Of a DNA stretch of 64,000 bases, positions 44,196 through 62,786 are shown piece after piece. Position 1 is the stretch's first letter, and each line of letters begins with the position of its first letter. Source of the DNA: Burkholderiales bacterium (GTDB lineage: Bacteria > Pseudomonadota > Gammaproteobacteria > Burkholderiales > Burkholderiaceae_C); the NCBI GenBank assembly GCA_038231215.1, contig JBBRLS010000018.1, positions 3,832 to 67,831 of the forward strand, written 5' to 3'. Under the pieces are notes generated by a model. It searched no databases. It was given only the letters and a program-made list of their open reading frames with translations, and had not been told where the DNA came from. The position numbers were made by a program, and so were the translations under genes.

Positions 44196-44236
44196 GGTGT
44201 ATGATGCACTCAAATCAATAGATTTATACACATCAT
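44192..44236. promoter_or_regulatory. AT-rich vapBC promoter with inverted repeats (probable autoregulatory operator)
   Basis: ATGAGGTGTAT...ATACACATCAT inverted repeat enclosing AAATC-AATA-GATTT. Confidence 0.6.
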
Positions 44237-44474
44237 GCGCACGAACATCCTGATCGACGACGCAGTTCTCGATGCAGCCATGCGGGCGGGGCCCTACAAG
44301 ACGAAGAAAGATGCCGTCGAAGCCGGACTGAAGCTGCTCGCCCGGCAGGCTGCATATCGCGAGATCCTGGCCTTGCGCGGCAAGCTGCGCTGGGACGATG
44401 CGGCCGAGGCTGGCCGCCGTGTCGTCAGCGAACCGTCGGTGCAATATGCGGTTCGTCGCAAGCCAAAGAAATGA
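44235..44474 (+). CDS. vapB: VapB family antitoxin
   Basis: MRTNILIDDAVLDAAM...TKKDAVEAGL (RHH-like); overlaps the toxin start. Confidence 0.88.
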   Translation: MRTNILIDDAVLDAAMRAGPYKTKKDAVEAGLKLLARQAAYREILALRGKLRWDDAAEAGRRVVSEPSVQYAVRRKPKK

Positions 44475-44872
44475 TCCTCGTCGACTCGTCGGTATGGATC
44501 GATTTCTTCAACGGTCATGAAAATGCGGGCGTCGAACGCCTGGCCGATCTGCTTGCCGACGGCACCGCGCCGCTCACGATGGCCGACCTCGTTCTCTTCG
44601 AGGTGTTGCGCGGCTTCCGTGACGAACAGGACTTCAACGCCGCACGTCGGACGCTGGCCGCGTTGCCGGTCGTCGAGATCGGTGGCGAAGACGAAGCCGT
44701 TCGTGCCGCGCGGCACTACCGCCTGCTCCGCTCTCGAGGCTTGACCGTGAACAGCCCGGTCGATGTGTTGCTCGCCAGCTTCTGCATCGAGCACGACAGC
44801 GCCCTGCTTCACAACGACCGCGACTTCGATGCGCTCGAGCGTCACGCGGGCCTGCGCGTCTGGCGCCCCTGA
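44471..44872 (+). CDS. vapC: VapC PIN-domain toxin
   Basis: MILVDSSVWID, EVLRG, VDVLLA and HNDRDF; acidic PIN residues present. Confidence 0.92.
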   Translation: MILVDSSVWIDFFNGHENAGVERLADLLADGTAPLTMADLVLFEVLRGFRDEQDFNAARRTLAALPVVEIGGEDEAVRAARHYRLLRSRGLTVNSPVDVLLASFCIEHDSALLHNDRDFDALERHAGLRVWRP

Positions 44873-47466: not shown

Positions 47467-48407
47467 GCGCCTTTCCTTCGAAGGTCACGCTGGTCGACGT
47501 CGGGCCGCGCGACGGGCTGCAGAACGAGAAGCAGAACGTCGACGCGGCGGTCAAGATCGAGCTCGTGCATCGCCTGCAGGCGGCCGGCCTGCGCGAGATC
47601 GAGGTGACGAGCTTCGTCAGCCCGAAGTGGGTGCCGCAGATGGCCGACAACGTCGCGGTCCTCGCCGGCATCGCCAGGAAGCCCGGCGTTCGCTACTCGG
47701 TGCTGGTGCCGAACATGAAGGGGCTCGACGCCGCGCTTTCGGCGCCGCGCGCGCTGTGGCCCGACGAGATCGTCGTCTTCGGCGCGGCGACCGAAGCCTT
47801 CAGCCATCGCAACATCAACTGCTCGATCGCCGAGAGCGTCGAGCGCTTCCGGCCGGTCGTCGCCGCCGCTCACGCGCACGGCATCAAGGTGCGCGGCGCC
47901 GTCTCGGTGGCGCTCGGCTGCCCGTACCAGGGCGAGGTGAGTGCCGACGAGGTCGAGCACATCGTCAGGCTGATGAAGGAGATCGGCGTCGACCACTGCG
48001 GCATCGCCGACACGATCGGCGTCGGCACACCGAAGAAGGTACAGGCCGCGATGGAGCGAGCGCTGCGCCACTACCCGATCGCCGAGGTGAGCGGCCATTT
48101 CCACGACACCTATGCGCAGGCGGTGGGCAACGTCTACGCCGCGCTCGAGGTCGGCATCGCCACCTTCGACGCCAGCGTCGCCGGTCTCGGCGGCTGCCCG
48201 TACGCGAAGGGCGCGACCGGCAACGTCGCGACCGAGGACGTGCTGTTCCTGCTGAACGGGCTGGGCATCGAGACGGGCGTGTCGATCGATGGCGTGATCG
48301 ATGCGGCTGCGTTCATTTCCGGCGTGCTGGGCAGGAAGCCGGTCTCGCGCTCGGCGAACGCGTTGCTCGCCAAGCGCGCCGCAGCGGCCGAGAAGGCAAC
48401 CGTCTAG
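47463..48407 (+). CDS. liuE: Hydroxymethylglutaryl-CoA lyase
   Basis: VGPRDGLQNE, ADTIG, HFHDT and GLGGCPYAKGATGN. Confidence 0.93.
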   Translation: MSAFPSKVTLVDVGPRDGLQNEKQNVDAAVKIELVHRLQAAGLREIEVTSFVSPKWVPQMADNVAVLAGIARKPGVRYSVLVPNMKGLDAALSAPRALWPDEIVVFGAATEAFSHRNINCSIAESVERFRPVVAAAHAHGIKVRGAVSVALGCPYQGEVSADEVEHIVRLMKEIGVDHCGIADTIGVGTPKKVQAAMERALRHYPIAEVSGHFHDTYAQAVGNVYAALEVGIATFDASVAGLGGCPYAKGATGNVATEDVLFLLNGLGIETGVSIDGVIDAAAFISGVLGRKPVSRSANALLAKRAAAAEKATV

Positions 48408-51400
48408 CTCCAGTCGCGCAGCGCCCGATGCGTCGGGTTGCGCTGCAGGAAGCTGTCGCGAAACTCGGGCGGCATTGCGTCTTCCGCGCGCGCGGCGATC
48501 CAGGCGGCGGCAGCCTTGGCGCGGGCCAGCGCCTCGGCCTCTCGACCGACGGCACGCAGCGCCTGCGCAAGCCACAGTGTGCATTGGGGAAGCGCCGCGC
48601 CGATCGGCCACTCCGCCATCGCTCGCTCCGTCTCGGCGATGCCGGCAGCGGCCGCGATCGCGTCGCCCTCCAGCGCCGAAAGCCAGCAGCGCAACGCGTA
48701 GAGCGGAAGGAGTTGCTCGCGCAGGCCTTCCGACTCGCATCGGTCGATGAGGACGCTGCATTGCGCTGCGCGAAGCTCGGGGCGGACCGCCTTGCCCGCA
48801 GTCAGCACCAGCTCGCATGCGACGAGCAGGTTTTCGGAATCGAGCGCCGACGACACCGCCGCCACGGCATCGATGGCGCCACCGGTCGCAAGCCGGTACG
48901 CCCAGCGCAGCGCAAGCGCGCGCTCGCGCAAACGCGCGAACTGGGCGGCAGCGGCGAAGGCCTCGACGTATCGATGCGCGAGGTCCGGTCGGCCGAGGTC
49001 GAGATAGATCTCGGCGAGCGCGCTCGCCAGCCGCTGGTGCGTGTCGCCCTGCTCGGCGACGCGCTGCCGGTTTTCCTCGATCACCGCCAGGGCCTCGTGC
49101 CAACGTGCGCCGCGCCGATGCACGTCGGCGAGGATGTACACGGTACTGACGAAATTGACGGCCATCATGTCGGTACCGCGCAGCGCCTCGAGAGCGCGGC
49201 GGGCCGTCTTGCAGGCGACATCGAACTTGCCGAGGTGCGACTGGCAGAGCGCCTGCCGCGAACAGAGCATCGGCAGGGCCGACGACGAGCCCGACGCGAG
49301 CGAAGCCAGCCAGGCCTGCTGTCGGGCCAGCGCCTGTCGCGCCCGGCCGGCCCAGAGCATCACGAGGTCGGTGCTTTGCTCGATGTCGATGGCGCGGCTC
49401 TCGCGACCGATGCGCCGGTGGACCTCGGCGGCCGCGGTGAAGCGGGACGCCGCGTCGTGCAACCTGCCGGCATAGGCATCGTGAACGCCCTGGCTGAACC
49501 TGCACTCCGCCTCGATGAGGTCGTCGCCGGCCTCGATGGCCATCGCCAGCGTCTCATCGAGTATCGGCAGGAAGTCTTCGAGGTCGCCGCGCTCGTGCCG
49601 GGCGACGAGGCGAAAGTAGGCGAGGCGAATGCGCTGCGACGCGGTGTGCGCGAGCGGCGCGAGGCGCTCGACGGACTCATCGAAGGCCGCCATCGGACCG
49701 AGCTCGGTCATCGCCTCGGTGCAGTCGAACAGCAGGTCGAAGGCGGCGTCGGACTGGCCGCGCAACAACTCGATCGAGGCGGCGCGGAAGTAGGCTTCGC
49801 GGACTTCGCGGCTGCGCCCGAGCTGCCACGCCTGCCGCGCCGCGGCGGCGAGGTGAGGGATCGCGGCGGCCTCGTCGCCGGCGCTGAGCAGATGGTGGGC
49901 GAGGCGCGCCGGTCCGGCGCCGCGCTGCGCGAGATGGACCGCGACACGTCCGTGCAGCACGCGGGCGATCGGCTCCGGCAAGAGGCGCTGCGCCGCTTCG
50001 CCGATCAGGTCGTGCATGAAGCCGCGTGAATCGAGCAGGCCGAGGCGTTCGAGCGCGTGCCACGCGTCAGCGAGCTCGAGGACATCGCGCCGGCTCACCG
50101 CCGCCGCCAGCTCGGGATCGAACTCGTGGCCGGCGACAGCGGCGATGCGCACGACGAGCAGCCCATCGGCCGGCAGCGCCGTCAAGCGCTGCTCGAGCAG
50201 CTCGGCGACGCGTGCGGGCGCCTCAAGTGCGTCGGCACGCAGCTGGCCGTGCTTCTCGAGGGCGTGGCGGATCGTCTCCAGCAGGTGCAGGGGATTGCCG
50301 CCGATGCGCCGCATCAGGGCCGCCGCGACGGAGCGGGCGTCGACGAGCGGCACATGCAGGGATTCGACGAAGGGCTGCACGTCGGCGGCATCGAGCGGCA
50401 GCAAGGGCAGCGTCACGACGTCGCCGCGGCCGCCGAGCGCGGCCAGGCGCTGGGCAGCGCTCTCGCCCTGAAGCCGCGAAGCGAACGCAAAGCGAAGGCC
50501 GCCGAGGCTGGTCCGGTCGAGCAGCTCTTGCCAGAGGTCGAAGCTGGCATCGTCGGCGAACTGCAGATCGTCGAGCACGAGGGCGGAGAGGCCCTGGCCT
50601 GCCGCCGCCGCCAGCAGCTCGGTGACGACGGGCAGCGCCGACTGCACGTTCGGCGCCTGGCCTTCGCGCGGCGCGCTCATGCGCGAGAGGAAGCGCCGGT
50701 GCGCGGCGGTTGCGCCGACCGCCGGCCAGCGCTCGCGCAGGAGGTGCACGAGACGATGGACGGTCGCCAGCGGCACCTTGTCGTCGCCCGGCCGGGCACG
50801 CAGCACCAGCCGGCCCGGCTCGCTCTCGCACAGGGCGTCGAGAAGCCGGCTCTTGCCCGCGCCGGCCTCGCCCGTGAGCAGGAACACGCGTCGTGCCGCC
50901 CAGGTCGTCGCCAGCTCGGCGAGCAGCCGGTCGCGGCCGACCAGCACGGGTGGCCGCAACGCCGATGCCGGCAGCGGCTGGCCGGCGATCCAGGTGTGCG
51001 GGCGTGCTTGCTCGACGGTGTGCAGCAGGGCCAGCGTTTCCGCCGAGGGCCGCGTGCCGATCTCGTCCTTGAGCGTGCGCTCGCAGTGATCGAAGGCGAG
51101 CAGGGCGGCGGAGCGGTCGCCGCGCAGATAGTGCAGGCGCATCAGGTGGCGATGCGCGGCTTCGCTCAAGGGGTCGAGCTGCAACAGGGTCTGCGCCACG
51201 GGCAGCGCGGCGGCGAGCTCGCCGGCGCTTTCGAGAGCGCTGACCTGCGCCTCGAGGTCGCGCCGCTGACCGGTGAGGCGGCGCTCGCGCTGCTCGTGCA
51301 GCCAGCGGTTCAGGTCGGGTGCATCGGGGAACTGCAGGTCGCCGAGCACACCGACTTCGGCGTCCAGATCGTGATGCACGGCTTCGCCGAGACGCAGCGC

Positions 51401-51637
51401 GCTGCCACCGCTGACCAGCTCGCCGCAATGCTTCTTGAGGTGAAAGAGACGCTGCCGCAGCGTGTTGCGCGCCGCCTCGGGCTCGCTGCCCGGCCACAGC
51501 AACTCGGCCAGCCGGGCCCGCGGCGTCGGACCCTCGAGCGCCAGCCAGGCCAGCAGCGCCGCGTCGCGCGGGGCGAGCGCGCTGTTCGAGCCGTCGGCGA
51601 GGGTGGCCGACGCGAGGTCGACCAGGTGCAGGCGCAT
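48404..51637 (-). CDS. SARP/BTAD-domain regulator with AAA/STAND ATPase and TPR-like C-terminus
   Basis: wHTH (LLAWLALEG...LLWP...ARNTLRQRL) and BTAD (DPLSEAAHRHLMRLH...GTRPSAET). Walker A GEAGAGKS, Walker B LVLDDLQFAD, then a helical repeat tail. Confidence 0.88.
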   Translation of the reverse strand: MRLHLVDLASATLADGSNSALAPRDAALLAWLALEGPTPRARLAELLWPGSEPEAARNTLRQRLFHLKKHCGELVSGGSALRLGEAVHHDLDAEVGVLGDLQFPDAPDLNRWLHEQRERRLTGQRRDLEAQVSALESAGELAAALPVAQTLLQLDPLSEAAHRHLMRLHYLRGDRSAALLAFDHCERTLKDEIGTRPSAETLALLHTVEQARPHTWIAGQPLPASALRPPVLVGRDRLLAELATTWAARRVFLLTGEAGAGKSRLLDALCESEPGRLVLRARPGDDKVPLATVHRLVHLLRERWPAVGATAAHRRFLSRMSAPREGQAPNVQSALPVVTELLAAAAGQGLSALVLDDLQFADDASFDLWQELLDRTSLGGLRFAFASRLQGESAAQRLAALGGRGDVVTLPLLPLDAADVQPFVESLHVPLVDARSVAAALMRRIGGNPLHLLETIRHALEKHGQLRADALEAPARVAELLEQRLTALPADGLLVVRIAAVAGHEFDPELAAAVSRRDVLELADAWHALERLGLLDSRGFMHDLIGEAAQRLLPEPIARVLHGRVAVHLAQRGAGPARLAHHLLSAGDEAAAIPHLAAAARQAWQLGRSREVREAYFRAASIELLRGQSDAAFDLLFDCTEAMTELGPMAAFDESVERLAPLAHTASQRIRLAYFRLVARHERGDLEDFLPILDETLAMAIEAGDDLIEAECRFSQGVHDAYAGRLHDAASRFTAAAEVHRRIGRESRAIDIEQSTDLVMLWAGRARQALARQQAWLASLASGSSSALPMLCSRQALCQSHLGKFDVACKTARRALEALRGTDMMAVNFVSTVYILADVHRRGARWHEALAVIEENRQRVAEQGDTHQRLASALAEIYLDLGRPDLAHRYVEAFAAAAQFARLRERALALRWAYRLATGGAIDAVAAVSSALDSENLLVACELVLTAGKAVRPELRAAQCSVLIDRCESEGLREQLLPLYALRCWLSALEGDAIAAAAGIAETERAMAEWPIGAALPQCTLWLAQALRAVGREAEALARAKAAAAWIAARAEDAMPPEFRDSFLQRNPTHRALRDWS

Positions 51638-51737
51638 GGCAGCCGGTGCCGCACGCCGGCTGGCATGCGACGGGCGGCTGGTGAGGGTGGCTGCGATGGT
51701 AGCTACGAAAGAAGCGGCGAGGACCCGTATCGAGGAC

Positions 51738-54176
51738 TCACGGGCACGGCACGACCGCCGGACAGAAACCGTTGAAGGTGCGCGGCGTCGTCTCCTTGCA
51801 CGAGGCGACTGCGGTGAATGTGTTGCTCGCCAGGAAGTCCGGCTGCAGATCGGCACGCCAGCCGCGATCGATGCCGAATAGTGCGCTCGAAAGGATCTCG
51901 GTGTTGGTGATGAACTGGCTCTGGGGCGGCCCGAAGATGCGGATCGCCGCGTCGTTGATGGGGACGCCGGGGAAGGGACACGAATTTCCTCCCGAAACCG
52001 ATGCGCCGCCGGCGAACTCGACCCGCACGTTCTGCATCGTGCTGCGCGGATCGACCGCGCCGGCGAAGCCGATGCCGAGCCAGTCGCCGGCCTTCGACGC
52101 GGGCCCCTGGTCGGACGTGAACACGATCTTCTGGTCGACTGCCGCTCCGCCGATCGCGATCAACGCGCCTCGGGCCGGACTGGTGCCGCTTCCCGGGTCG
52201 ACGTTGAACGTTCCGCCGGGCGGGAACTGGACGGTGACACCGGGTTCGATCGTCAGTACGGCGACCTGTCCGGCGACTTGCGAATTGATGTCCATGCGTC
52301 CGCTGTCGGCGCCGCTGCCGACGTGATACGGCACGCCGCGGTTGTGCATCGTCTGGTCGTCGACGACCGGGCCGCCCGAGCCGGCGATGGCGATCGCGTC
52401 GTGGCCGTTGCCGGTGTAGGTGCCGCTCGGCACCGAGCCGATCACCCGGGCATAGACGTGCACCGGATAGCCGGCCGAGCCGTGCACGGTGAGCTGCTGC
52501 GAGCTGGCGTCGAAGCCGACCGGCCCGTTGATGTAGACGCCCTGGCTGAGCGAGCCGCCGATGTCGACGTTGTCGACGTGGAAGCTGCCGATGAGGCTCG
52601 GGCTCTGCATGTGCAGCACCCCAGCGTAAGCGGGGTTGGTGCTGAACGGATCGCCGCCGCCGGTGAGCACCGCGTGGTTCAGCGACAGGTTGCCGCCGAG
52701 GTTGCGGATGGACGCCCAGGCCATGCCGGCGACCTTCGCCTCGAAGGTGACCGGCCGGCCCGCCGATCCGTTGGCAACCAGGCTGCCGGTCGGCGTCACC
52801 GTCACCGTGCCACCCTTGACGATGCGCACCACGGCGCACTCCTGGATCGTCACGGGGGCCGAGACGTTGATGTCGAAGGGGATGATGTGCGGGCTGCCGG
52901 CCTCGGTCCAGGTCTCGGCGGCGTTGATGCTGCCGTGCGTCGTGCCCGCGCCGGCCGGCGCCGCACAGGGCAGCACGCCGCCGACCGGGCCGCAGGTCAG
53001 GTTGAGCGTGGTGACGTCGGCGTTGCCGACGGTGCCGCTGACGAACGAGGTGCCGGCGATCGCGCCGGGGCCGGTGAAGAAGCAGGTCTGGTTGGTCGGC
53101 TGGACGCGCACGCTGATGCTGAAGCTCGTGCCGTTGATGGCGCTGGTGTCGCTGGCCGCGTAGACGAAGCTGTTGTTGGTGATCGCCGCGGTGCCGAGTT
53201 GAACGCCCAGGTTCGGCGCGAAGTAGGTCAGGTCGAGGCCGCTGCCGGTCAGGCCGGTGATCGTTCCGCCGACCGAATAGGCGGGCGGGTAGGGGCAGTC
53301 GACGACGACGTCGGCGATGTCGCTGCTGCCGATCGTGCCCGTGCCGTTCGTGACGGTGCAGGTCTGATCCGGCGTTCGCGGCTGGGCCGCGATCGTCACG
53401 TTGTAGGCGCTGCCCAACGGCAAGGCGGTGGCGAAGGCATAGGTTCCGTCGATGAAGCGCGTCAGGTCGTCGCCGCCGTTGTTCTGCAGCTTGATCCCGT
53501 TTGCCGAGTGCTGCCTAAGGCCGGTGATCGTCAGCGACACGGTGTGCGTGCCGCAGACCACGTTGACGCCATTGACGTCGGCCGCGGCGACCGTGCCGCT
53601 GCCGTTGACGACGACGCAGGTCTGCGCCGGGCCGGTCGGCTGATTGACGATCGAGACGGCGTAGACAGTGCCGGTGACGGCGCTGGTCCGGCTCGGGCCG
53701 AACACGAACGCGCCGTTGGCGTTGACCTGATCGATCGACGGCAGGCTGACGTTGTCGGCGTTGTATTGCAGCGTCAGGCCCGTGCCGGTGAGCCCGGTGA
53801 CCGTGCCGCCGACCGCGTAAGCGGTGGCGTAGGGGCAGTCGATCGCGACGTTGGTGACGTCGGCGCCGGCGATCGAGCCGCTGCCATTGGTGACCGTGCA
53901 GGTCTGGTCGGGAGCGGTCGGTTGCGACGAGACCGTCACGGCGTAGGCGGCGCCGGCGGCGAGCGCGGTCTTGAAGGCGAACGCACCGTCGCCGAACACC
54001 CTGAGGTCGTCGCCGCCGTTGTTGCGCAGGGTCGCCCCGTTGTACGACGTACGCAGGCCCGTCACGGTGACGGACACGGTGTGCGTCGAGGTGTCGGGCG
54101 TGGTGCCGCCGCCGCCGCAGGCCGAGACCAATACGAGGAGCGCCAGGGCACCGACGCAGCGAAGAACTGAAACCAT
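51738..54176 (-). CDS. Large lipoprotein with four Cys-pair beta-sandwich repeats and a C-terminal beta-helix-like domain
   Basis: Lipobox LVSAC. Four repeats of about 85-100 aa (..GTVTGL..QP..QTC..NGSG..V.C). C-terminal WTEAGSPH...TFEAK and VTVQF...IVFTS segments. Confidence 0.85.
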   Translation of the reverse strand: MVSVLRCVGALALLVLVSACGGGGTTPDTSTHTVSVTVTGLRTSYNGATLRNNGGDDLRVFGDGAFAFKTALAAGAAYAVTVSSQPTAPDQTCTVTNGSGSIAGADVTNVAIDCPYATAYAVGGTVTGLTGTGLTLQYNADNVSLPSIDQVNANGAFVFGPSRTSAVTGTVYAVSIVNQPTGPAQTCVVVNGSGTVAAADVNGVNVVCGTHTVSLTITGLRQHSANGIKLQNNGGDDLTRFIDGTYAFATALPLGSAYNVTIAAQPRTPDQTCTVTNGTGTIGSSDIADVVVDCPYPPAYSVGGTITGLTGSGLDLTYFAPNLGVQLGTAAITNNSFVYAASDTSAINGTSFSISVRVQPTNQTCFFTGPGAIAGTSFVSGTVGNADVTTLNLTCGPVGGVLPCAAPAGAGTTHGSINAAETWTEAGSPHIIPFDINVSAPVTIQECAVVRIVKGGTVTVTPTGSLVANGSAGRPVTFEAKVAGMAWASIRNLGGNLSLNHAVLTGGGDPFSTNPAYAGVLHMQSPSLIGSFHVDNVDIGGSLSQGVYINGPVGFDASSQQLTVHGSAGYPVHVYARVIGSVPSGTYTGNGHDAIAIAGSGGPVVDDQTMHNRGVPYHVGSGADSGRMDINSQVAGQVAVLTIEPGVTVQFPPGGTFNVDPGSGTSPARGALIAIGGAAVDQKIVFTSDQGPASKAGDWLGIGFAGAVDPRSTMQNVRVEFAGGASVSGGNSCPFPGVPINDAAIRIFGPPQSQFITNTEILSSALFGIDRGWRADLQPDFLASNTFTAVASCKETTPRTFNGFCPAVVPCP

Positions 54177-54226
54177 GACCGACTCCCCTCGGGAACGTCC
54201 CCGAAGGAAGAGGTTGTAGGCAACGC

Positions 54227-54246
54227 GCCGTTATGAAAGCGTTAGG
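54227..54246 (-). promoter_or_regulatory. 11-bp-period direct repeat box upstream of the 812-aa lipoprotein
   Basis: Coding strand CCTAACGCTTT CATAACGGC; TACAAC lies 8 nt downstream. Confidence 0.5.
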
Positions 54247-54355
54247 TCGGACGGCGCGGCGCGAGCGAGGCGGTCGGGTTCGGCCTCGGCTCGGGGTCGA
54301 AGCCGGACAGCGTTCGCGACGTGGGCGCGGCGACGCCTGGCAGTCGATAGGCGAC

Positions 54356-54595
54356 CTACATCTCCCGGGTGCTGGGCAGAAAGCCGGTGTCGCGCTCGAC
54401 TGACGCCTTGCTTGCCAGCCGAGCGGCATCGGTCTGATCATCGACGCCGGTGCCCGCCTCGGCGAAGTGGCGAGCGAGATCCGCCGCCGTGTGAAAGAGA
54501 TGCGGCTCTTCCTCGTCGAGACGACGCGCGGTGGCGCGAAAAGTCCCGTGCTCATGCCACAAGCGAACGAGGTACACAGTGGCATCGTTGTTCAT
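54356..54595 (-). CDS. Small hypothetical protein (79 aa, YLVRLW motif)
   Basis: AGGAGA RBS. MNNDATVYLVRLWHEHGTFRATARRLDEEEPHLFHTAADLARHF. Confidence 0.75.
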   Translation of the reverse strand: MNNDATVYLVRLWHEHGTFRATARRLDEEEPHLFHTAADLARHFAEAGTGVDDQTDAARLASKASVERDTGFLPSTREM

Positions 54596-54692
54596 GCTTC
54601 TCCTGATGCAGAGATGGTGCGCATCGTGGATCTCTTCGAGTCAAGGACGCTGTCGGGGCAATGCAGCCCTGATGACATCACTCTGAGTGGAG

Positions 54693-54712
54693 GGCGTTTC
54701 CTTGGCGTTTCC
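54693..54712 (-). promoter_or_regulatory. 11-bp-period direct repeat box upstream of the 79-aa gene
   Basis: Coding strand GGAAACGCCAA GGAAACGCC; CAGAGT lies 7 nt downstream. Confidence 0.6.
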
Positions 54713-54763
54713 CGACACCGCGGCGGATCGTCCGATCGCGCTGTCGCGAACCAGGCCCGACCT

Positions 54764-57700
54764 CTAGCGCGACGTTGCCGGATCGTTCAGAGCGAGCAGG
54801 AACTCGTCGATCGTGCAGGCATCGACCGCTCCGGCGTGCGGTGTGCCGCTCGTCAGGCGTTCGGCGCGTTCCGCTGCATCACGGCGGGTCGGCACGTCGA
54901 GGCCGGGATCCTGCGCGACCATGCGCAACAAGCGCGCGGCAGCGAGTGGCTCGTTGCGGGCGACGAGCCACTCGGCATAGGCCGAAGCCCCGTACAGCAC
55001 GTCTTGCGGGGAGCGACGTTCGGCCGCGGCTCGCACGACGTCGCGCAATCGAGCCAGTGCGGCTTCGTGCTCGCCCTCGGCGATGTCGATGCGCGCCAGG
55101 CCGATGGAAGAGGATGACTCCATCGGCCACGCGCCCGACTCCCGACTCCATGCTTGGCTCGACGAGAAATGCTCACGTGCCTGTGCCAGCAGGCCGAGGT
55201 TGCGGCAGACCCGGCCCATGTTCAGCTCGATGTAGCGTCCTATGGAATCGATACCGAAGGCTGCGCAGTGACGCAAGCCGTCTCCCAGGGTCAAGCGCGC
55301 GGCGTCGAATTCCCGACAGGCGTTCTGCAGATTGCCCAGGTTGGTGAGGTTGATCGCGACGTTGTACTGGTCGCCGAGCTCGCGCATGATCTCGAGCGCG
55401 AGCGTCAAGTCCGCCCTCGATTCTTCGAGGCGACCCAGGACCTGCAGCGCGACGCCCCTGTTCCCGAGCGCCCAGCCGACGCTGTGACGATCTTCGCAGG
55501 CCGTGGCGACGCGCAGCCCCTCTTCGAAGCGCTCCAGGGCCAGCGCGTTGTCGCCGAGTGTGTAGTGCGCCATGCCCGTGTTGAGGATGCAGCCGACCCA
55601 GGCTTCGCTGTCGTCGCCTTTCTCCGCAAGGGCAATGCCGGCCTGCGCGACATCCAACGCTTCGCTCAACTCGCCGCTGCGGTGCAGCAGCATCGACAAC
55701 CCATGCCGCGAACGCGAAATCGCCCGGTTCGCAGACGTCGAACCACTCGCAATCGCCAAGGCAGGCCGCAGTTCGCGGATGCCTTCGGGCAGCCGTCCCT
55801 GGTTCTCGAAAAAAGACCAGAGCGCTCGCACCATGTCACCCACCAGGTCAATACGTCCCATGGCGAGGGCGCGCCGCCAGGCGGTGATGTGGTTTGCTAA
55901 CTCGCCGATGACGCCGCGCACGAGCAAGCGCTGGTCGCCGATGGCGTGCGGCGCAAGCTCGGCCAGTTCGCGCGCGAAGTATTCCGTGTGCCGGCGGTGT
56001 ACATCGTGTGCCCGGGAAGGCTCGTCGGCGAGGCGTGCCGCAGCATAGGCGGCGATCGTCGGGTGCAGTGTGAAGCGCCCGTCCGCGCCGCCGCCGACCA
56101 GGCTGCGGTCGACCAACGACGACAGCAGCGGCAGCGCCACCTCGCATGCCGAACGTGCGGCGCGATGCGTGAAGCCGCCTTCGAAGATCGATAGCGCGGC
56201 GAGTGCGCGCCTCTCGGCGTCGGCCAGCAAGCTGAAGCTGCGATCGAGGACGGCGCGCAGGCTCGCGTGTTCAGGTCGGGCAGCGACGACGGTGCTTGTC
56301 GGATCGCGCTCGAGGGCGTCGATCGAGCGACCGAGGTCGCTGGCTATTTCCTCGGGTGGCAGCAGACGTACCCAGGCCGCCGCGAGCTCGATCGCCAGCG
56401 GCAGGCCGTCGACCGCTTCGACGATGTCGATCACGGCGGCGAGGTGGCGACGCAGGTCGAAGCCGCGCAAAGCCGCACGAGCGCGCGTGTCGAAGAGCCG
56501 CACGGCGTCGAAGCTCGGCGCCACGTCGAAGTCGCGGCTGAGCGCGTCGGGTACAGCCAGGCCGTGCAGGCGCATCGGCCATTCGTCGCGACAGCGGGTG
56601 AGCGTGCGCGAGGTGAGAAGGACGCACGCGCCGGGCGCGGCGGCGAGCAGCCGGTCGAGGAAGAGCGGCAGTCCGTCGAGGTGCTCGCCGTTGTCGAGGA
56701 CGAGCAGGTTGCGGGTCGGCGGCAATCGCCGTGATACCTGCTCGAGCGGATCTTCGCCGGCCCGCAACTCCAGGCCGAGTTGCCCGGCGAGCCGCGCGAC
56801 AACAGCGGATACGTCGATCAGGTCCTGAAGGTCGGTCCAGCGTGCGCCGCCGGGAAACGACGCCCCCATCTCGGCGAGCGCCTGGCGCGCCAACCGGCTC
56901 TTGCCGACGCCGCCCGGCCCGACGAGGGTGACGAGGCGACCCTGCGGCTCCGCGAGCATGGCGCGCAACTCGGTCATCTCGGTGCGGCGGCCGATCAGGC
57001 GATCGCTCTCGTCGGGAGCTGTCTCGCGCGCCGCCGCCGGTCCCTGCGGCTCCAGGCATCTGCGCAGGCTGCTCGACGGCTCGATGCCAAGGCTTTCGGC
57101 CAGGCGAACGGCGTAGTCGTTGTAGATGCGCTGTGCGCCGGCGCCACGGCCGCCGGCCAGTTCGTCGCGGATCAGCACCTCGATCGCACTTTCGTCCAGA
57201 GCATCGCTTTCGAGCAGGCGGCGTGCCAGCGCCAGGCGTTGCGGCTGATCGGTCGAGGTGGCGAGGAGCTCGATGCAAGCCTGGCGCCATGAGGACGCCG
57301 CCTGTTCGCGCTGGCGCGCCAGCCACTCCGCCAGCGGCTCGTTGCCGACCGCGTCGATGCCCGTGCACAGCGGTGGACCGCCGATGGCGATCGCCTCGGC
57401 AAGGCGCCTTTCGCTCAGCGCTTCCCGATAAGCCGCGAGGTCGGTATCGACATGCCAGCGCAGTGCCTGTTCGCCTGCTTCCAGAGATTCCGTTCCGGGC
57501 AACTCGCGCGCACGGAAGACGACCTTGCGCAGGTTGCGGCGAGCTTCCATGGCGGGCCGGTCGGGCCAAAGCAGGCTGGCGACGAGATCCCGCTGCACCC
57601 ACTCGCCGCGATGTATCGCCAGCAGCACGAGCAGTTGATAGCGCCGCTCTGCGACGAACGGCACCGGGGCTCCGGCAACGTGCAGTGCGGGCGCTCCGAA

Positions 57701-57766
57701 CAGGAAGAGACGCGGCCTCTCCCGGCCAGGCGATGACGCCAAAGCCACCTCGACGAGATCGTGCAC
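54764..57766 (-). CDS. SARP/BTAD-domain regulator with NB-ARC-like STAND ATPase and TPRs
   Basis: wHTH (LLVLLAI...LLWP...ARRNLRK) and BTAD (LDESA...LGIEPS). Walker A GPGGVGKS, Walker B LLVLDNGEH, GLPLAIELAA, then a TPR tail. Confidence 0.9.
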   Translation of the reverse strand: MHDLVEVALASSPGRERPRLFLFGAPALHVAGAPVPFVAERRYQLLVLLAIHRGEWVQRDLVASLLWPDRPAMEARRNLRKVVFRARELPGTESLEAGEQALRWHVDTDLAAYREALSERRLAEAIAIGGPPLCTGIDAVGNEPLAEWLARQREQAASSWRQACIELLATSTDQPQRLALARRLLESDALDESAIEVLIRDELAGGRGAGAQRIYNDYAVRLAESLGIEPSSSLRRCLEPQGPAAARETAPDESDRLIGRRTEMTELRAMLAEPQGRLVTLVGPGGVGKSRLARQALAEMGASFPGGARWTDLQDLIDVSAVVARLAGQLGLELRAGEDPLEQVSRRLPPTRNLLVLDNGEHLDGLPLFLDRLLAAAPGACVLLTSRTLTRCRDEWPMRLHGLAVPDALSRDFDVAPSFDAVRLFDTRARAALRGFDLRRHLAAVIDIVEAVDGLPLAIELAAAWVRLLPPEEIASDLGRSIDALERDPTSTVVAARPEHASLRAVLDRSFSLLADAERRALAALSIFEGGFTHRAARSACEVALPLLSSLVDRSLVGGGADGRFTLHPTIAAYAAARLADEPSRAHDVHRRHTEYFARELAELAPHAIGDQRLLVRGVIGELANHITAWRRALAMGRIDLVGDMVRALWSFFENQGRLPEGIRELRPALAIASGSTSANRAISRSRHGLSMLLHRSGELSEALDVAQAGIALAEKGDDSEAWVGCILNTGMAHYTLGDNALALERFEEGLRVATACEDRHSVGWALGNRGVALQVLGRLEESRADLTLALEIMRELGDQYNVAINLTNLGNLQNACREFDAARLTLGDGLRHCAAFGIDSIGRYIELNMGRVCRNLGLLAQAREHFSSSQAWSRESGAWPMESSSSIGLARIDIAEGEHEAALARLRDVVRAAAERRSPQDVLYGASAYAEWLVARNEPLAAARLLRMVAQDPGLDVPTRRDAAERAERLTSGTPHAGAVDACTIDEFLLALNDPATSR

Positions 57767-57982
57767 GGGGCTCCCTCCCTTGGCGGCGAATGCTACGCCG
57801 CCGATGCGGTGCGCACCCGGTCATTTCGGAAGCGTGCGTCGCTACGGCGCCGGGTCGAAGTGCAAGGTGAATGCCGTTCCCGTGCCGACCATGCGCCCGC
57901 TGCCGTTGGACACCTGCCACTGCATCTGCAATCGCTCTCCGGCGGCCATACGAGTCGTGGTGCATGCTTGCATGACGCTTGA

Positions 57983-58144
57983 GGCGCCGGTGGCCGCGTG
58001 GTCGAAGGTGCGGGATCGGCGGTGACCTTCGAGTTCGGCGGTCGCAGGATGACGCTTCATCGTCCCCACCCGCGCAAGGAGGCCCTGCGATATCGGGTGC
58101 TGGCGGTTCGGGAGTTCGTCGAACGAATGGGGATCAAACCATGA
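57983..58144 (+). pseudogene. hicA: 5'-truncated HicA toxin remnant
   Basis: Hand translation GAGGRVVEGAGSAVTFEFGGRRMTLHRPHPRKEALRYRVLAVREFVERMGIKP*. The stop overlaps the hicB ATG; an in-frame TGA sits at 57980. Confidence 0.7.
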
Positions 58145-58497
58145 GCAACGCAATGACCTACAAGGGCTACACGGCGTCGATGGTCTTCGATGCCGAAGAC
58201 AAGATCATCGTCGGCCGGGTCCTCGATGTCGACGACATCATCTCGTTTCACGGCGAGACCGTGGCCGAGTTCGAAGCGACGTTCCACGCTTGCGTCGACG
58301 CTTACATCGCTGCGTCCCGTGAACTCGGAACGGCGCCGGAGAAACCGGCCAGCGGCAGGCTCATGCTCCGGATCGCCCCCGAAGTTCATGCCGCCGCGCT
58401 CAAGGCCGCAGCCGCCAGCGGCACCAGCTTGAACAAGTGGGCCGAGAAGACGCTTCGGGTCGCCGCGCGCCGCAGGGGAGCCGTTTCCGCCGCTTGA
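58141..58497 (+). CDS. hicB: HicB family antitoxin
   Basis: MTYKGYTA...IISFHGETVAE...PEKPASGRLMLRIAPEVH. Confidence 0.9.
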   Translation: MSNAMTYKGYTASMVFDAEDKIIVGRVLDVDDIISFHGETVAEFEATFHACVDAYIAASRELGTAPEKPASGRLMLRIAPEVHAAALKAAAASGTSLNKWAEKTLRVAARRRGAVSAA

Positions 58498-58506
58498 GGG
58501 CGGCAC

Positions 58507-58535
58507 GCCTTGCTCGCCAAGCGGGCGAGCAAGGC
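58507..58535. terminator. Strong hairpin between convergent hicB and lipoprotein genes
   Basis: Perfect 12-bp stem GCCTTGCTCGCC-N5-GGCGAGCAAGGC; no clear U tract. Confidence 0.45.
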
Positions 58536-58695
58536 TGCGGCCGGCTGAGCCTTCGGTGTCGCTGACTAGGGCGCAGGCTCGAAGTGCAGGGGTCGCGGAT
58601 GACCTGTGGCGTGAGCCTTGCTCTGGGATAGCCAACCGGGGCGACCTACACCTCATCCGCTCCATGCCTGCCCAGTTCCATCCGGGAATTGCCGG

Positions 58696-60831
58696 TCAGT
58701 ACACCGGCTGTGCGGACAGATCGATATTGGTGCCGTACTGACCCCCGCGTCCGTCATCCTGCCGCCGCTCCCAACGGAAGATCAGGCCATCGCATCTGCC
58801 TTTGCCGGGATTGGCCTTCTCCGTACGGCCGCTGACTGTGTCCGTCCCACCGGCGATCGCTTTGCTTCCCGAAAAAGTGCTTCCAGAAAAAGGAGCGCCG
58901 TTGGACCAAACAATGGGGATAGAAATGCCCCCACCGTTAAATGTAAGCGTCGTTTCGGTGACGAAAGCAGGGTAGTTCGGTACGTAATACGGATTGGGAA
59001 TGGGAAAACCCGAAACGAGCGCCGTCCCCACGAAGGCGCCGACGTGATCACAGGTAATCGGCTCCGGTTTGGCGAAGTCGAGCGTGACGGTGGCGAGCAC
59101 TTCGTCGGTGATGCCGAGCAGGGCAGCGCAGGCACTGCCCGTACGTCGTATGCGCAGCATGTGCGTGCCCTGGTCGTCGGCCGCCAGGCCCGCGGCCGAG
59201 AGCAGCCCGCTCGTCGTCAGCGTGCCGAGCGCGCCGGCGAGCAAGCCCGGGCCGCTGCCGCTGACGCTGGCCACCTCGGCGTTCTCGAAGGTGACCTTGA
59301 GCGTCTCGCCACCCGCGCTGTCGCACTCCAGCGCGGCGACGCTGCCGCTCACCTGCAACGATCCGCCGCTGCGCATCGCCACCGTGGCGCTGCGCACCGG
59401 ATCGGCCGGTGCGTCGGGCAGCGCCGCGAAGCCGAGCGTCGCAGCGGCGACCGCAGCCCCCGTGCTGTCGCTGCTCTGCACGTCGATGCGCGTGCGCACG
59501 AACTGCACGTCCTGCTGCAGCACCGCAGTCGGGCCGAAGGCGTCGAGCAGGTCGGCGTACTGCACCAGCGTCGCACCGGTCTTGGCGGCGGTCCACGCCG
59601 ACTGGCGCGCCGGCATCACGGCCGGGTCGAGCAGCTGAGTCTGCAGTGTGCTCTCGTAGCCGCTCAGGTCGAGCGCGGCCGGGCGCACGCCGGCGGCAGT
59701 CGCCCGCGCGCGGCCCGAGGCGGCCTGCGCCGCGCTGGCCGCAGGGTCGGTGCTCTGCAGGGTGCGCGCCTCGCGCTTGAGCTCGCGCGCGCCGCGCACG
59801 TCGCTGGCCGGCTGCGCGATCTGCGCCGGGGTCGAGGAGCGTCCAAGGCCGGCATTGACGAGGTCGAACTCGCGCTTGACGACATTGCTGGCGGCATCGG
59901 TCGCCGAGCCGGTGCACGGCGTGCCGCCCAGCCGCATGGCGAGCGAGTCCCAGTACATGATGACGCTGACCACCGGCTTGTAGTCGCCCCAGGCGGCGAT
60001 CGACGCCGTTTGCGAGCGCGTGATCGCGGCCGCGCGTTCGCGGCAGGCGGTGTCGTGCGCTTCGCTCAGGAAGGGTTGCGCCAGTGCGATGTAGCCGTCC
60101 TCGCCGCTGCGCATGAGCAGCCCGGCGATTTGCTGCTGGCTGTAGATGGCGGCGATGAACAGGCCACGCGCTTGCAGGTCGGCGATGCTGGCCCGCGCCG
60201 CGGTCACCTGCAGGGTGATCTCGAGCCTTTGCTGGGCCGAGAGCGAGCCGGGCGGATCGGGCAGCGGGTCGTCCTGCGGGCCGGCGCGCTGCGCGTGCTT
60301 GCGGTCTGCGGCAGCCGCCCCGAGCGGCTTGAGGTTCGCACCGCCGAAGGTGACGAGCGTGGCGGTGAGCGTGCGCGCCGACTTGTCGACCACCGTGGGT
60401 GCGTAGGCGCCCGCGCCGCCGATGTCCTGGCGCAGCGACGCCAGCGCGTCGGGCGTGATGCCGGCGGGCAGCTCCATCGTCACCGTCACCGGCCTGGCGA
60501 AGACCAGGCTGCCGGGCTCGAGCTTGAGGCTGACGAAGTCGCCCGCGACGGGCGCCACGGGCGTGACCTTGACGAGCGTGTCGGCACTCAGCGCGCCGGC
60601 GGGGAACGCGAAGTGCACCTTGACGCCGAGCGTGGTCGCATCGAGCGTGCCGCCGGCCGCGCCCACGGTCTGCGTCACCGGGTCGCCGAGCGGGCCGCTC
60701 AGCTTGACCGCCTGGGGCGTGGCCGGAGCCACGTAGTCGCCGCCGCCGCAGGCGGCCAGGGCGAGGGCGGCGAGCAGCGCTGCCGCCCGTGCAATGAACC
60801 GATGCGCCTTGCGGCCCTGAAGATCGCCCAT
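58696..60831 (-). CDS. Large lipoprotein with N-terminal ZU5-like domain
   Basis: Lipobox LAAC and AGGAGG RBS. TVGAAGGTL...FPAGAL...LEPGSLVFARPVTV is a ZU5-like pattern, followed by a helical middle and beta-rich C-terminus. Confidence 0.8.
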   Translation of the reverse strand: MGDLQGRKAHRFIARAAALLAALALAACGGGDYVAPATPQAVKLSGPLGDPVTQTVGAAGGTLDATTLGVKVHFAFPAGALSADTLVKVTPVAPVAGDFVSLKLEPGSLVFARPVTVTMELPAGITPDALASLRQDIGGAGAYAPTVVDKSARTLTATLVTFGGANLKPLGAAAADRKHAQRAGPQDDPLPDPPGSLSAQQRLEITLQVTAARASIADLQARGLFIAAIYSQQQIAGLLMRSGEDGYIALAQPFLSEAHDTACRERAAAITRSQTASIAAWGDYKPVVSVIMYWDSLAMRLGGTPCTGSATDAASNVVKREFDLVNAGLGRSSTPAQIAQPASDVRGARELKREARTLQSTDPAASAAQAASGRARATAAGVRPAALDLSGYESTLQTQLLDPAVMPARQSAWTAAKTGATLVQYADLLDAFGPTAVLQQDVQFVRTRIDVQSSDSTGAAVAAATLGFAALPDAPADPVRSATVAMRSGGSLQVSGSVAALECDSAGGETLKVTFENAEVASVSGSGPGLLAGALGTLTTSGLLSAAGLAADDQGTHMLRIRRTGSACAALLGITDEVLATVTLDFAKPEPITCDHVGAFVGTALVSGFPIPNPYYVPNYPAFVTETTLTFNGGGISIPIVWSNGAPFSGSTFSGSKAIAGGTDTVSGRTEKANPGKGRCDGLIFRWERRQDDGRGGQYGTNIDLSAQPVY

Positions 60832-60900
60832 GATCGATGCCTCCTGTGGCGGGCTGCATCGACACTTCGCGCAGACCCTGGGACCGTACTGTCCTCAGGG

Positions 60901-60920
60901 GGCGTTTCTCGAGCGTTTCC
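60901..60920 (-). promoter_or_regulatory. 11-bp-period direct repeat box upstream of the ZU5-like lipoprotein
   Basis: Coding strand GGAAACGCTCG AGAAACGCC; GACAGT lies 7 nt downstream. Confidence 0.6.
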
Positions 60921-60932
60921 CCATCTCGCGAC

Positions 60933-61030
60933 GAGATCCTTCGCTCCGCTCAGGATGACTGTGGCTGCGCTCAGGATGACATTGGCTGCGCTCAGGAGGA
61001 CGTTGGCGGCGCTCAGGAGGACGTTGACGG
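60933..61030. repeat. REP-like half element with four 21-bp tandem units
   Basis: GAGATCCTTCGCTCCGCTCAGGATGAC, with CGCTCAGGA(T/G)GAC-N9 units at 60947, 60968, 60989 and 61010. Confidence 0.85.
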
Positions 61031-61048
61031 CGGCTTGCGCCGCCAATG

Positions 61049-61825
61049 TCACTTCTCGACGAAGGCGCGCTCGATCACGTAGGCGCCGGCCTGGCCGATG
61101 CCGGCGGAGATCGTGAAGCCGGCGGCGTCGAGCACGGCGCGCATGTCCTTCAGCATCGCCGGGCCGCCGCAGATCATGGCGCGGTCGTGCGCCGGGTCGA
61201 TCTGCGGAAAGCCGATGTCGCGGCACAGCTTGCCACTGGCGATCAGATCGGGCAGGCGGCCCTGGTGGCGGAAAGGCTCGCGCGTCACCGTCGGGTAGTA
61301 GACGAGCTTTGCGCGGACCTGGTCGCCGAGGAAATCGTCCCTTGGCAGGTCGTGGGCGATCAGGTCGTCGTAGGCCAGCTCGTCGACCTTGCGCACACCG
61401 TGCACGAGGATGATCTTCTCGAAGCGCTCGTAGGTGTCGGGGTCGCGGATGATGCTCATGAAGGGCGCCAGGCCGGTGCCGGTCGCGAACAGGTAGAGAT
61501 AGCGACCGGGCAACAGGTCGGTGAGCACCAGGGTGCCGGTGGGCTTGCGGCCGATCAGCACCTCGTCGCCGACCTTCAGGTGCTGCAGGCGCGAGGTGAG
61601 CGGCCCGTCCTGCACCTTGATGCTGAAGAACTCGAGATGCTCCGCGTAGTGCGCGCTGGCGATCGAATAGGCGCGCATCAGCGGCTTGCCGTCGACCATG
61701 ATGCCGACCATCACGAAGTGGCCGCTCTCGAAGCGCAGGCTGGCCCCGCGCGTGCAAGTGAAGGAGAAGAGCGATTCGTTCCAGTGATGGACCGAGAGAA
61801 CCTTTTGGGAGTCGAAAGCCGCCAT
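61049..61825 (-). CDS. fpr: Ferredoxin--NADP+ reductase
   Basis: VLSVHHWNESLFSF, RAYSIAS, GPLTSRL, ATGTGLAPF and MICGGP. Confidence 0.95.
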   Translation of the reverse strand: MAAFDSQKVLSVHHWNESLFSFTCTRGASLRFESGHFVMVGIMVDGKPLMRAYSIASAHYAEHLEFFSIKVQDGPLTSRLQHLKVGDEVLIGRKPTGTLVLTDLLPGRYLYLFATGTGLAPFMSIIRDPDTYERFEKIILVHGVRKVDELAYDDLIAHDLPRDDFLGDQVRAKLVYYPTVTREPFRHQGRLPDLIASGKLCRDIGFPQIDPAHDRAMICGGPAMLKDMRAVLDAAGFTISAGIGQAGAYVIERAFVEK

Positions 61826-61952
61826 GCGATGGGGAACCTCGTGATCTGCACGGACAAGGGCGCCGTGCCGATCGTCCTTCGCGCCGGTATGGCGCATGCT
61901 AGATTGTCCCTGCATTGAGGGAGGCCCTTCGTTGACGAAGGCAGGCAGCACG

Positions 61953-62786
61953 ATGACCCGTTTCGAGCGACCCGAGTCGATGGCCGAGGCGACGAGCCTG
62001 CTCGCGGCCGGCGACTGGGTGCCGCTCGCCGGCGGCACCGACCTCTACCCGGCGCAGGTCGGCCGGACGATGCCGCGACCCTTGCTCGATCTCTCCCGTG
62101 TCGCCGGGCTGCGCGGCATCCGGCAAAGCAACGACGGCTGGACGATCGGCGCGACGACGACCTGGACCGACGTCATCCGCGCCGATTTGCCGCCGCTCTT
62201 CGATGCGCTCAAGGCCGCGGCGCGCGAAGTCGGCGGCTTGCAGATCCAGAACACGGGCACGATCGCCGGCAACGTCTGCAACGCCTCGCCGGCCGCCGAC
62301 GGCATGCCGGTGCTGCTCGCGCTCGGCGCCGAGGTGGAACTGCACAGCACTCTCGGCTCGCGGCGTCTGCCGCTCGACGCCTTCGTGCTCGGCCCGCGGC
62401 GTACTGCGCGGCGCAGCGACGAGCTGGTGACGGCGTTGCACATTCCTTCCCGCAGCGCGCGGGCGAGGTCCGTGTTCGCCAAGCTCGGCGGGCGCCGCTA
62501 TCTCGTGATCTCGATCGCCATGGTCGCGGTCGTCGTAGATGTCGATGGGGGGGGCCGAGTCATCGACGCGGGCATCGCCGTCGGCAGTTGCTCGGCGGTG
62601 GCCAAGCGCCTGCCATCGCTCGAAGCGCGCCTGCTGGGACACGACGTCGCCGAGCTCGCCGACTGCGTCGAGGCCGACGACCTCGCACCGCTCACACCGA
62701 TCGACGACGTGCGGGCCAGCGCCGGGTTTCGTCTCGACGCGACGCTCACCTTGCTGCGTCGCGCTCTCGCGTCGCTCGCGCCATGA
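61953..62786 (+). CDS. Xanthine/CO dehydrogenase family FAD-binding subunit
   Basis: AGGTDL, QIQNTGTIAGN and NASPAAD. Confidence 0.9.
   Translation: MTRFERPESMAEATSLLAAGDWVPLAGGTDLYPAQVGRTMPRPLLDLSRVAGLRGIRQSNDGWTIGATTTWTDVIRADLPPLFDALKAAAREVGGLQIQNTGTIAGNVCNASPAADGMPVLLALGAEVELHSTLGSRRLPLDAFVLGPRRTARRSDELVTALHIPSRSARARSVFAKLGGRRYLVISIAMVAVVVDVDGGGRVIDAGIAVGSCSAVAKRLPSLEARLLGHDVAELADCVEADDLAPLTPIDDVRASAGFRLDATLTLLRRALASLAP

Follow-up and report, generated by a model that had tools for sequence, protein, structure and literature searches.

According to reviews, regulators of the SARP family occur only in actinobacteria and are associated with antibiotic clusters (PMC10972967). The published rule for their promoters is that direct repeats are spaced by 11 or 22 bp, the 3' copy being 8 bp away from the -10 element (PMC10936776). 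Among known systems, the closest to the one analysed here is AfsR-afsS of Streptomyces coelicolor (8HVR, 8K60, 8JKE), which combines a regulator of ~1000 aa, built in the order SARP, NOD/NB-ARC-type NTPase and TPR, with a target promoter made of two direct repeats with an 11-bp period, the 3' repeat being 8-9 bp from the -10 element. We describe a locus of similar layout in a stretch of 64,000 nucleotides (hereafter the window; contig C18:3832-67831) from a soil Burkholderiales metagenome-assembled genome (MAG; 4.5 Mb, 187 contigs, ~69% GC) whose public homologues are labelled Caldimonas sp., Burkholderiales. Five minus-strand open reading frames (ORFs) at 48404-60831 code for two lipoproteins (Lipo711 and Lipo812), two large regulators (STAND_A and STAND_B) and one small protein (small79), with the places, sizes and domains that a preliminary description of the window had given them. 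As read from the sequence, this region probably holds two independent AfsR-type cassettes, in which ATP-gated regulators would activate the promoters of the adjacent lipoprotein and small-protein genes.

The likeness to AfsR-afsS extends to gene order, since STAND_A has a small gene immediately downstream, preceded by a repeat box, in the place that afsS holds beside afsR. By contrast, the host is a betaproteobacterial Burkholderiales MAG and not an actinobacterium, the repeats read GAAACGC or TAACGC instead of CGTT(T/C)ATCGNN, the targets are lipoproteins with no antibiotic cluster nearby, no AfsK-type kinase accompanies the cassette, and small79 belongs to a seemingly different, unnamed family. 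The similarity of both regulators to AfsR is visible by profile only. The best solved match to their N-terminal module is EmbR of Mycobacterium tuberculosis, composed of winged helix-turn-helix (wHTH), BTAD and FHA domains (2FEZ); however, EmbR carries this C-terminal FHA domain instead of an NTPase and TPR, and regulates arabinosyltransferase genes. MalT and other STAND-TPR ATPases provide a functional analogy as ligand- and ATP-gated STAND switches with a DNA-binding output and dedicated promoters, although MalT has a C-terminal LuxR-type helix-turn-helix, no N-terminal SARP and another promoter architecture. The literature that we searched contained no account of SARP-type regulators controlling lipoproteins in Gram-negative bacteria, an absence that does not amount to proof.

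Two large SARPs and their candidate operators

Judging from domain and profile matches, both regulators are of AfsR type, each uniting SARP and NTPase domains with TPR repeats. STAND_B (48404-51634, minus strand) is a predicted AfsR-like large SARP of 1077 aa with wHTH and BTAD, an AAA_16 P-loop NTPase and TPR; its open frame extends to 51856, and we set the start at MRLHLVDL, as in its orthologues. Its Pfam matches include BTAD at 48.3 bits (cut-off 22.1), AAA_16 at 50.0 bits and TPR_12 at 27.1 bits (cut-off 30.1). STAND_A (54764-57766, minus strand; 1000 aa) has the same predicted order with an NB-ARC/AAA_16 NTPase, and matches BTAD (PF03704) at 23.7 bits (cut-off 22.1) and TPR_12 at 78 bits; nSTAND was also among the Pfam matches of the large proteins. 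Intact Walker motifs can be read in the two ATPases, as the preliminary description had reported: Walker A GPGGVGKS at 283 and Walker B LLVLDN at 354 in STAND_A, GEAGAGKS at 256 and ALVLDD at 352 in STAND_B, which also has a canonical MHD at 541 where STAND_A has LHP (at 567).

Single-sequence searches of the PDB with the regulators reached TPR proteins only (LGN/Pins structures). A profile made from the first 210-220 residues of nine proteins of the STAND_A and STAND_B types matched EmbR (2fez) with an E-value of 7.8e-12 over residues 15-254, and AfsR (8hvr, 8k60 and 8jke) with E-values of 5.7e-7 to 4.7e-5 over residues 33-263, wHTH and BTAD being covered in each case. These matches and the Pfam domains bear out the SARP-STAND identity proposed earlier for both proteins. 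Each has a BTAD with, by profile, an OmpR-type winged helix directly before it, a central P-loop NTPase with Walker A and B, and C-terminal TPR, an architecture that agrees with the definition of a "large SARP" (PMC10972967). They share this architecture with AfsR, but the NCBIfam equivalog SARPRegAfsRStmc gave 31 bits, in the TPR region only, against a cut-off of 1430, so neither STAND_A nor STAND_B is an AfsR orthologue.

Related genes occur elsewhere in this genome. A frameshifted STAND_B paralogue at C35:36882-40444 (locus L061), possibly a pseudogene or an assembly error, is directly followed by a TAACGG-N5-TAACGC box and a 123-aa ORF without Pfam match. Three tandem NB-ARC/TPR-type STAND genes at C76:1995-12742 match STAND_A only from residue ~250 onwards and are therefore devoid of the SARP module.

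The three promoters of Lipo711, small79 and Lipo812, all on the minus strand, fit the SARP rule, with 8-9 nt between the 3' repeat and the -10-like hexamer. The box upstream of Lipo711 (60888-60919) reads GAAACGC-tcga-GAAACGC followed after 8 nt by GACAGT, and that of small79 (54680-54711) reads GAAACGC-caag-GAAACGC followed after 8 nt by CAGAGT. At Lipo812 (54213-54245) the repeats are CTAACGC-tttc-ATAACGG, with an 11-bp period, and TACAAC follows after 8-9 nt. A promoter and terminator scan found no sigma-70 -35/-10 consensus at these three box-bearing promoters and predicted no minus-strand terminators. On the two strands of the 4.5-Mb genome there are exactly two copies of GAAACGC-N4-GAAACGC, and these lie in the island; from base composition we estimate a chance expectation of ~0.03.

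A generalised form of the STAND_B-type box ([AG]ACG[CG]-N6-[AG]ACG[CGA]-N8-10-TACAA) had five matches genome-wide, compared with 0-1 in shuffles. Four of the five lie 59-71 nt upstream of large lipoprotein genes (Lipo812, C3_585, C3_887 and C55_679) and the fifth lies upstream of C38_975, for which the true start and signal peptide are not callable; the two matches on contig C3 flank another STAND_B paralogue. We found no homology among the five box-bearing proteins. According to Pfam, C3_585, C3_887, C55_679 and C38_975 each have an Ig-like domain and differ in the remainder: C3_585 has no further Pfam match, and the others continue with an RCC1 propeller, with ELWxxDG repeats or with a region that contains HExxH.

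The C3 locus (C3:112418-121429; L058) has the aspect of a third cassette. In order, it holds a box, a 585-aa Big_5 lipoprotein, the STAND_B paralogue, a 318-aa secreted protein, another box and a lipoprotein of 887 aa in which Big_2 and an HExxH-like motif are recognised; each of the boxes reads GTGACGC-N4-GTGACG[CG], then TACAAC. The boxes at C38:13072 (minus strand; L059) and C55:7446-7458 (plus strand; L060) are TAACGC/GTGACGC direct repeats, three of them on C55, with nearly identical 5' leaders and no regulator gene nearby; their products combine Big_2 with an RCC1 propeller (975 aa) and Ig with ELWxxDG repeats (679 aa), respectively.

Conservation of the boxes extends beyond this genome. 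The Lipo812 box hardly varies among five orthologous loci (L022, L023, L024, L027 and L030), and at Lipo812 homologues located elsewhere (L025, L026 and L057) the repeats are GTGACGC-N4-GTGACG[AC], at an unchanged distance from TACAA[AC]. The gene for small79 (54356-54595, minus strand) codes for a 79-aa, presumably cytoplasmic protein of a conserved family characterised by the motif [YF]LV[RH]xW...FRA[ST].R..D; this family comprises ~90 clusters, none of them named, which come without exception from Burkholderiales-type MAGs, and has no Pfam or NCBIfam match, also at E<=10. We compared 13 small-gene loci (the window, L028, L029, L032, L033/L035, L048, L049/L050 and L051-L055), and every one has [G/C]AAACGC-N4-[G/C]AAACGC, then 8-9 nt and a TAAGGT-like hexamer, the box being 55-114 nt upstream of the small gene. 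The box is kept even in other families where the small protein is just 25-45% identical.

Cassette history and gene neighbourhoods

In 12 of these 13 loci, the small gene has a BTAD-NB-ARC-TPR gene no more than 8 kb away, usually immediately upstream, and within the genus five of six small genes adjoin a STAND_A-like gene. The cargo behind the small gene varies among relatives, from arrays of Lipo711-like genes to a ~440-aa protein with a secretin operon, a 691-aa protein with an S8 peptidase, or several signal-peptide proteins, which points to a general regulatory cassette and not to one dedicated function. Neighbourhood analysis of BTAD-STAND homologues, which the preliminary description had proposed as a check, thus came out positive, lipoprotein and small-protein neighbours being recurrent.

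In other Burkholderiales families (L048, L051, L052, L053 and L055), the small gene heads an operon with the ~440-aa unannotated protein and the secretin (PF00263). The L048 secretin is a lipoprotein with N-terminal TPRs, and two mirrored boxes with paired CAAACGC repeats serve divergent genes at this locus. These secretin operons may code for an export or pilus-like apparatus that is not yet characterised and is controlled through SARP boxes.

The evolutionary history of the region emerges from a tblastn comparison of the island proteins with 20-kb regions taken from relatives. Cassette 1 consists of Lipo812 followed by STAND_B, whereas cassette 2 consists of STAND_A, small79 and Lipo711, with an antitoxin-like gene, hicB, between Lipo711 and STAND_A. 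The gene order HMG-CoA lyase - STAND_B - Lipo812 - fpr (ferredoxin-NADP-reductase-like) - xanthine dehydrogenase is conserved in five other congeneric species (G018, G021, G028, G030 and G036), with 64-74% identity for STAND_B and 84-92% for Lipo812, including G030, in which the match is split into four pieces. STAND_A, small79 and Lipo711 had no tblastn match in any of these five cassette-1 loci. Homologues of STAND_A (47-48% identity) sit elsewhere, at G028:C381 and G021:C431, and are followed there by a small79 homologue and then by one to three Lipo711-like genes. Since cassette 1 is conserved without cassette 2, and STAND_A homologues occupy other sites, the comparison identifies cassette 2 as an insertion of ~6.7 kb between fpr and the Lipo812 promoter. 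Leftover ancestral intergenic sequence is seen at both insertion junctions. Cassette 1 is ancestral at this chromosomal site, and the pair of Lipo812 and STAND gene recurs in a different genomic context at L057, where a BTAD-AAA-TPR gene is directly downstream.

This history changes the earlier picture of an accessory island of paired receptors. "Accessory" describes cassette 2, which was inserted, but not cassette 1, conserved in place across the genus; and what had been taken for one system of paired receptors is instead two independent cassettes joined by insertion. On the same comparative grounds, the true partners of STAND_A are the small protein and the lipoprotein of the 711-aa type.

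From the domains, the neighbourhoods, and the uniqueness and conservation of the boxes, we infer how boxes and regulators pair, that the regulators activate, and what their products do. On the model of AfsR at the promoter of afsS, two SARP domains would bind the pair of heptamer direct repeats at 11-bp spacing; the repeats, which lie 8-9 bp upstream of the -10 hexamer, would stand in for the -35 element and serve to recruit RNA polymerase, while the NTPase/TPR part would gate SARP-domain activity in response to a signal. STAND_A would recognise GAAACGC-N4-GAAACGC and drive the small79 and Lipo711 genes, and STAND_B would recognise the TAACGC/TAACGG repeats and drive the Lipo812 gene. STAND_B may in addition autoregulate by read-through from Lipo812, as it lies 103 nt downstream of this gene with no predicted terminator between them. 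The small protein would be a conserved, co-regulated partner of the STAND_A type.

Other features of the region complete this description. On one side of the cassettes are housekeeping genes for a liu-type acyl-CoA dehydrogenase, an enoyl-CoA hydratase and HMG-CoA lyase, and on the other the fpr gene and xanthine-dehydrogenase-like subunits, also housekeeping. There are no biosynthetic genes in the island, as already stated in the preliminary description, which had missed its sole additional gene, hicB (58141-58497, plus strand; Pfam HicB, E 3.2e-15). The GC content of hicB (64.7%) is below that of its neighbours, and the gene appears orphan because the ORFs of the window include no recognisable HicA next to it, its upstream side holding only a 31-codon ORF (58049-58144). 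Tandem Repeats Finder detected 4.1 copies of a 21-bp unit, CGCTCAGGAGGACGTTGGCGG, at 60947-61032, between the fpr-like gene and the Lipo711 box and near the left insertion junction. Beside this repeat there is an element GAGCG(C/G)AGCGAAGGATCTCG, which the same intergenic site has also in relatives L022 and L027. An Rfam scan of 47500-62000 found no RNA family. A vapB-vapC pair (VapB antitoxin and PIN domain; 44235-44872, plus strand) is inserted just upstream of the liu-type acyl-CoA dehydrogenase gene.

Exported lipoproteins and their possible roles

Neither lipoprotein had a useful match in Pfam or NCBIfam, even at E<=10, with no recognisable enzymatic or carbohydrate-binding domain, and sequence searches of the PDB found no match for them. 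Their structure models have moderate confidence. Lipo812 (51738-54176, minus strand) is a predicted adhesin-like lipoprotein of 812 aa with the lipobox VSAC at residues 17-20, followed by GGGG, and with orthologues at 81-92% identity. Its AlphaFold2 model (pLDDT 77) is all-beta over residues ~30-400, where two alternating repeat types, (A-B)x2, can be read by eye, and continues with a conserved, beta-rich, Cys-containing C-terminal domain. As to the "repeat/beta-helix" label given to it earlier, the repeats are seen in this reading by eye, and the model did not confirm a beta-helix in the beta-rich C-terminal domain. The best Foldseek matches were the multi-domain pilus adhesins PitA and SpaC and the B. 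anthracis TIE protein, and the model suggests a stalk-plus-head surface protein. Lipo812 resembles Gram-positive pilus tip and Ig-stalk adhesins such as PitA and SpaC in the row of beta-sandwich domains, by fold; unlike them, it is a Gram-negative lipoprotein with an uncharacterised C-terminal domain, and it has no sequence similarity to them, no sortase motif and no pilus genes. At C10:39008-40090 and C10:27555-27814, the same genome has pieces of a Lipo812 paralogue that show frame changes or internal TGA stops and probably represent a decayed copy.

Lipo711 (58696-60831, minus strand; 711 aa) has the lipobox LAAC at residues 25-28, followed by GGGD. Its AlphaFold2 model (pLDDT 66) comprises a ZU5-like beta-sandwich at ~50-161, a helical bundle at 199-444 and a beta domain at 447-585, the C-terminal tip (residues ~590-711) not being modellable. 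With a domain pLDDT of ~70-88, the beta-sandwich matched the ZU5 domain of ankyrin in Foldseek (4d8o, E 1.9e-4; 3ud1, E 1.8e-3; probability 1.0), so that the earlier term "ZU5-like" has support by fold but none from Pfam, in which ZU5 (PF00791) had no match even at E<=10. Lipo711 also differs from known ZU5 proteins (ankyrin, UNC5, PIDD/FIIND) in the absence of UPA or death domains. In the family alignment, conservation continues up to TVTLDF, delimiting a scaffold of ~590 aa beyond which the tips are unrelated. An exhaustive profile search retrieved 111 representatives of this scaffold at E<=1e-30, many of them matching the scaffold only (profile ~10-590) in proteins of 690-1020 aa; a first impression of an extremely rare protein, based on eight relatives from a word-index search, was thereby rejected.

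The output of both cassettes would be outer-membrane or surface lipoproteins, Lipo812 as a stalked, adhesin-like protein and Lipo711 as a scaffold with an exchangeable tip, and these two appearances suggest the inducible display of adhesin-like or ligand-binding proteins. A different purpose for the same molecular mechanism would be nutrient sensing in the manner of MalT, whereby the STAND-TPR part binds a substrate-derived molecule and induces a surface lipoprotein that binds or degrades the substrate. This would agree with the diversity of the box-bearing lipoproteins, which look like Ig stalks plus heads that include an HExxH-like motif with weak peptidase matches, the RCC1 propeller and the ELWxxDG repeats, as well as with the S8 peptidase among the cargo of one relative, the PD40/TolB-like propellers in which some Lipo711 relatives end, and the occurrence in a genome of several regulator paralogues that each have a target of their own. 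Nevertheless, neither cassette has a transporter, TonB-dependent receptor or catabolic gene conserved together with it, the liu and xanthine-dehydrogenase-like genes at the sides are merely the insertion site, and the two lipoproteins themselves have no domain of an enzymatic or carbohydrate-binding kind. We consider nutrient sensing unlikely, though it fares best among the alternatives.

The tips of Lipo711 raise another question, that of polymorphic surface effectors used in competition, with scaffolds that carry exchangeable toxin or recognition tips and are switched on by a competitor-sensing STAND protein. The conserved scaffold with unrelated tips is what such effectors would look like; in addition, the tip of Lipo711 has a GC content at third codon positions of 57-72%, against 88-100% elsewhere in the gene, and was therefore probably acquired by recombination. 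Relatives carry tandem arrays of two or three paralogues with different tips, which abut or overlap one another at L032, and hicB, a toxin-antitoxin remnant, adjoins Lipo711. However, no immunity-type small ORF follows any tip, either between the tandem paralogues of L032 and L035 or in the window, where the next gene is hicB on the opposite strand, and this argues against a toxin/immunity system. Pfam recognises no toxin domain in the Lipo711 tip, several tips of relatives are PD40/TolB-like propellers, that is, binding modules, and the cassette has no secretion or delivery genes. An effector role of this kind appears improbable.

We found no support for the role in cell-cell recognition, predation or defence that the preliminary description had imagined for NLR-like pattern sensors. 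Its anti-phage or anti-predator version, even less probable than the effector role, would have invader proteins recognised by the STAND-TPR proteins in the manner of Avs, with the lipoproteins as effectors or as masks of receptors; a STAND NTPase and TPR with an MHD-type motif are shared with NLR-like sensors, and cassette 2 is inserted and patchily distributed. By contrast, PADLOC matched no defence-system model: STAND_A gave only a generic TPR match (E 2.4e-5), STAND_B gave one marginal match to PDC-S68 (E 0.0087, 11.8 bits, residues 319-346), and neither the lipoproteins nor the small protein gave any. In place of an effector such as a nuclease or protease, the regulators carry a DNA-binding SARP module, cassette 1 is stable at one site in at least six species including this genome, and the cargo of relatives includes secretin operons.

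The predicted regulatory link and its significance

The link between regulators and lipoproteins is well supported in silico, on the one hand by the conserved neighbourhood and on the other by boxes in SARP layout, which are kept across distant loci and have almost no counterparts elsewhere in the genome. The same evidence supports, at the level of prediction, the direct regulation of flanking genes suggested in the preliminary description.

Several observations weigh against this reading. At the level of domains, the NTPase of STAND_A is just below the Pfam cut-offs (NB-ARC 23.2 against 23.5, AAA_16 32.0 against 32.6), and the Trans_reg_C winged helix of Pfam went undetected in both regulators. 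The -10 hexamers were assigned by eye and could be 1 nt off, and boxes were assigned to regulators by adjacency only. Adjacency itself is imperfect: a STAND_A paralogue on contig C15 has no box or small gene nearby, the Lipo812 homologues at L025, L026 and L056 have no adjacent regulator, and L056 has no recognisable box either. The Lipo812 repeat also varies (TAACGC or GTGACGC) independently of whether a regulator is adjacent; we rejected the idea that the box variant tracks regulator adjacency, given that L057 has GTGACGC with an adjacent regulator. Finally, Lipo711 lies here upstream of STAND_A with a box of its own, whereas in relatives it follows the small gene. Gene order is rearranged compared with those relatives, the orphan hicB and the 21-bp tandem repeat marking the rearranged region, although there may be a local misassembly at this point of a fragmented MAG of 187 contigs.

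If adjacency were coincidental, the regulators controlling unrelated genes elsewhere and the repeats being due to chance or serving another function, one would indeed expect solitary components such as the C15 paralogue, the L025, L026 and L056 lipoproteins and the L053 small gene without regulator within 8 kb, but the boxes are nearly unique in the genome and occur at these promoters only, they are kept across loci with low protein identity, and the gene pairs move together between genomic contexts, which makes coincidence the least credible explanation.

We thus favour two AfsR-type cassettes that regulate their own lipoprotein and small-protein genes, and in which a mechanism known from the control of actinobacterial antibiotics probably serves to turn on surface proteins. 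The complete AfsR architecture, together with the promoter layout, is found in Burkholderiales with a different output, exported lipoproteins, and the predicted operators and targets are directly testable. The analysis also yields a rule for regulon prediction (two heptamers at an 11-bp period, 8-9 nt and a -10 element) and defines three uncharacterised families: a small partner of ~70 aa, a ZU5-like scaffold lipoprotein with an exchangeable tip and a lipoprotein with an Ig-like stalk. More speculatively, AfsR-like NLR-type switches might constitute a class of "sense-and-display" cassettes that has gone unrecognised, common throughout Burkholderiales and perhaps present in other phyla too. In these, a large SARP, a SARP box and a small partner of the YLVRxW...FRAS type would gate envelope cargo that can be exchanged (arrays of variable-tip lipoproteins, stalked adhesins or export operons based on secretins), with the small protein acting as co-activator, as feedback ligand of the TPR/NOD part or as an AfsS-like relay; we regard this generalisation as conceivable, if doubtful. 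Should the signal perceived by the NTPase/TPR part be found, these cassettes would offer a tractable NLR-like switch with a transcriptional output outside Streptomyces.

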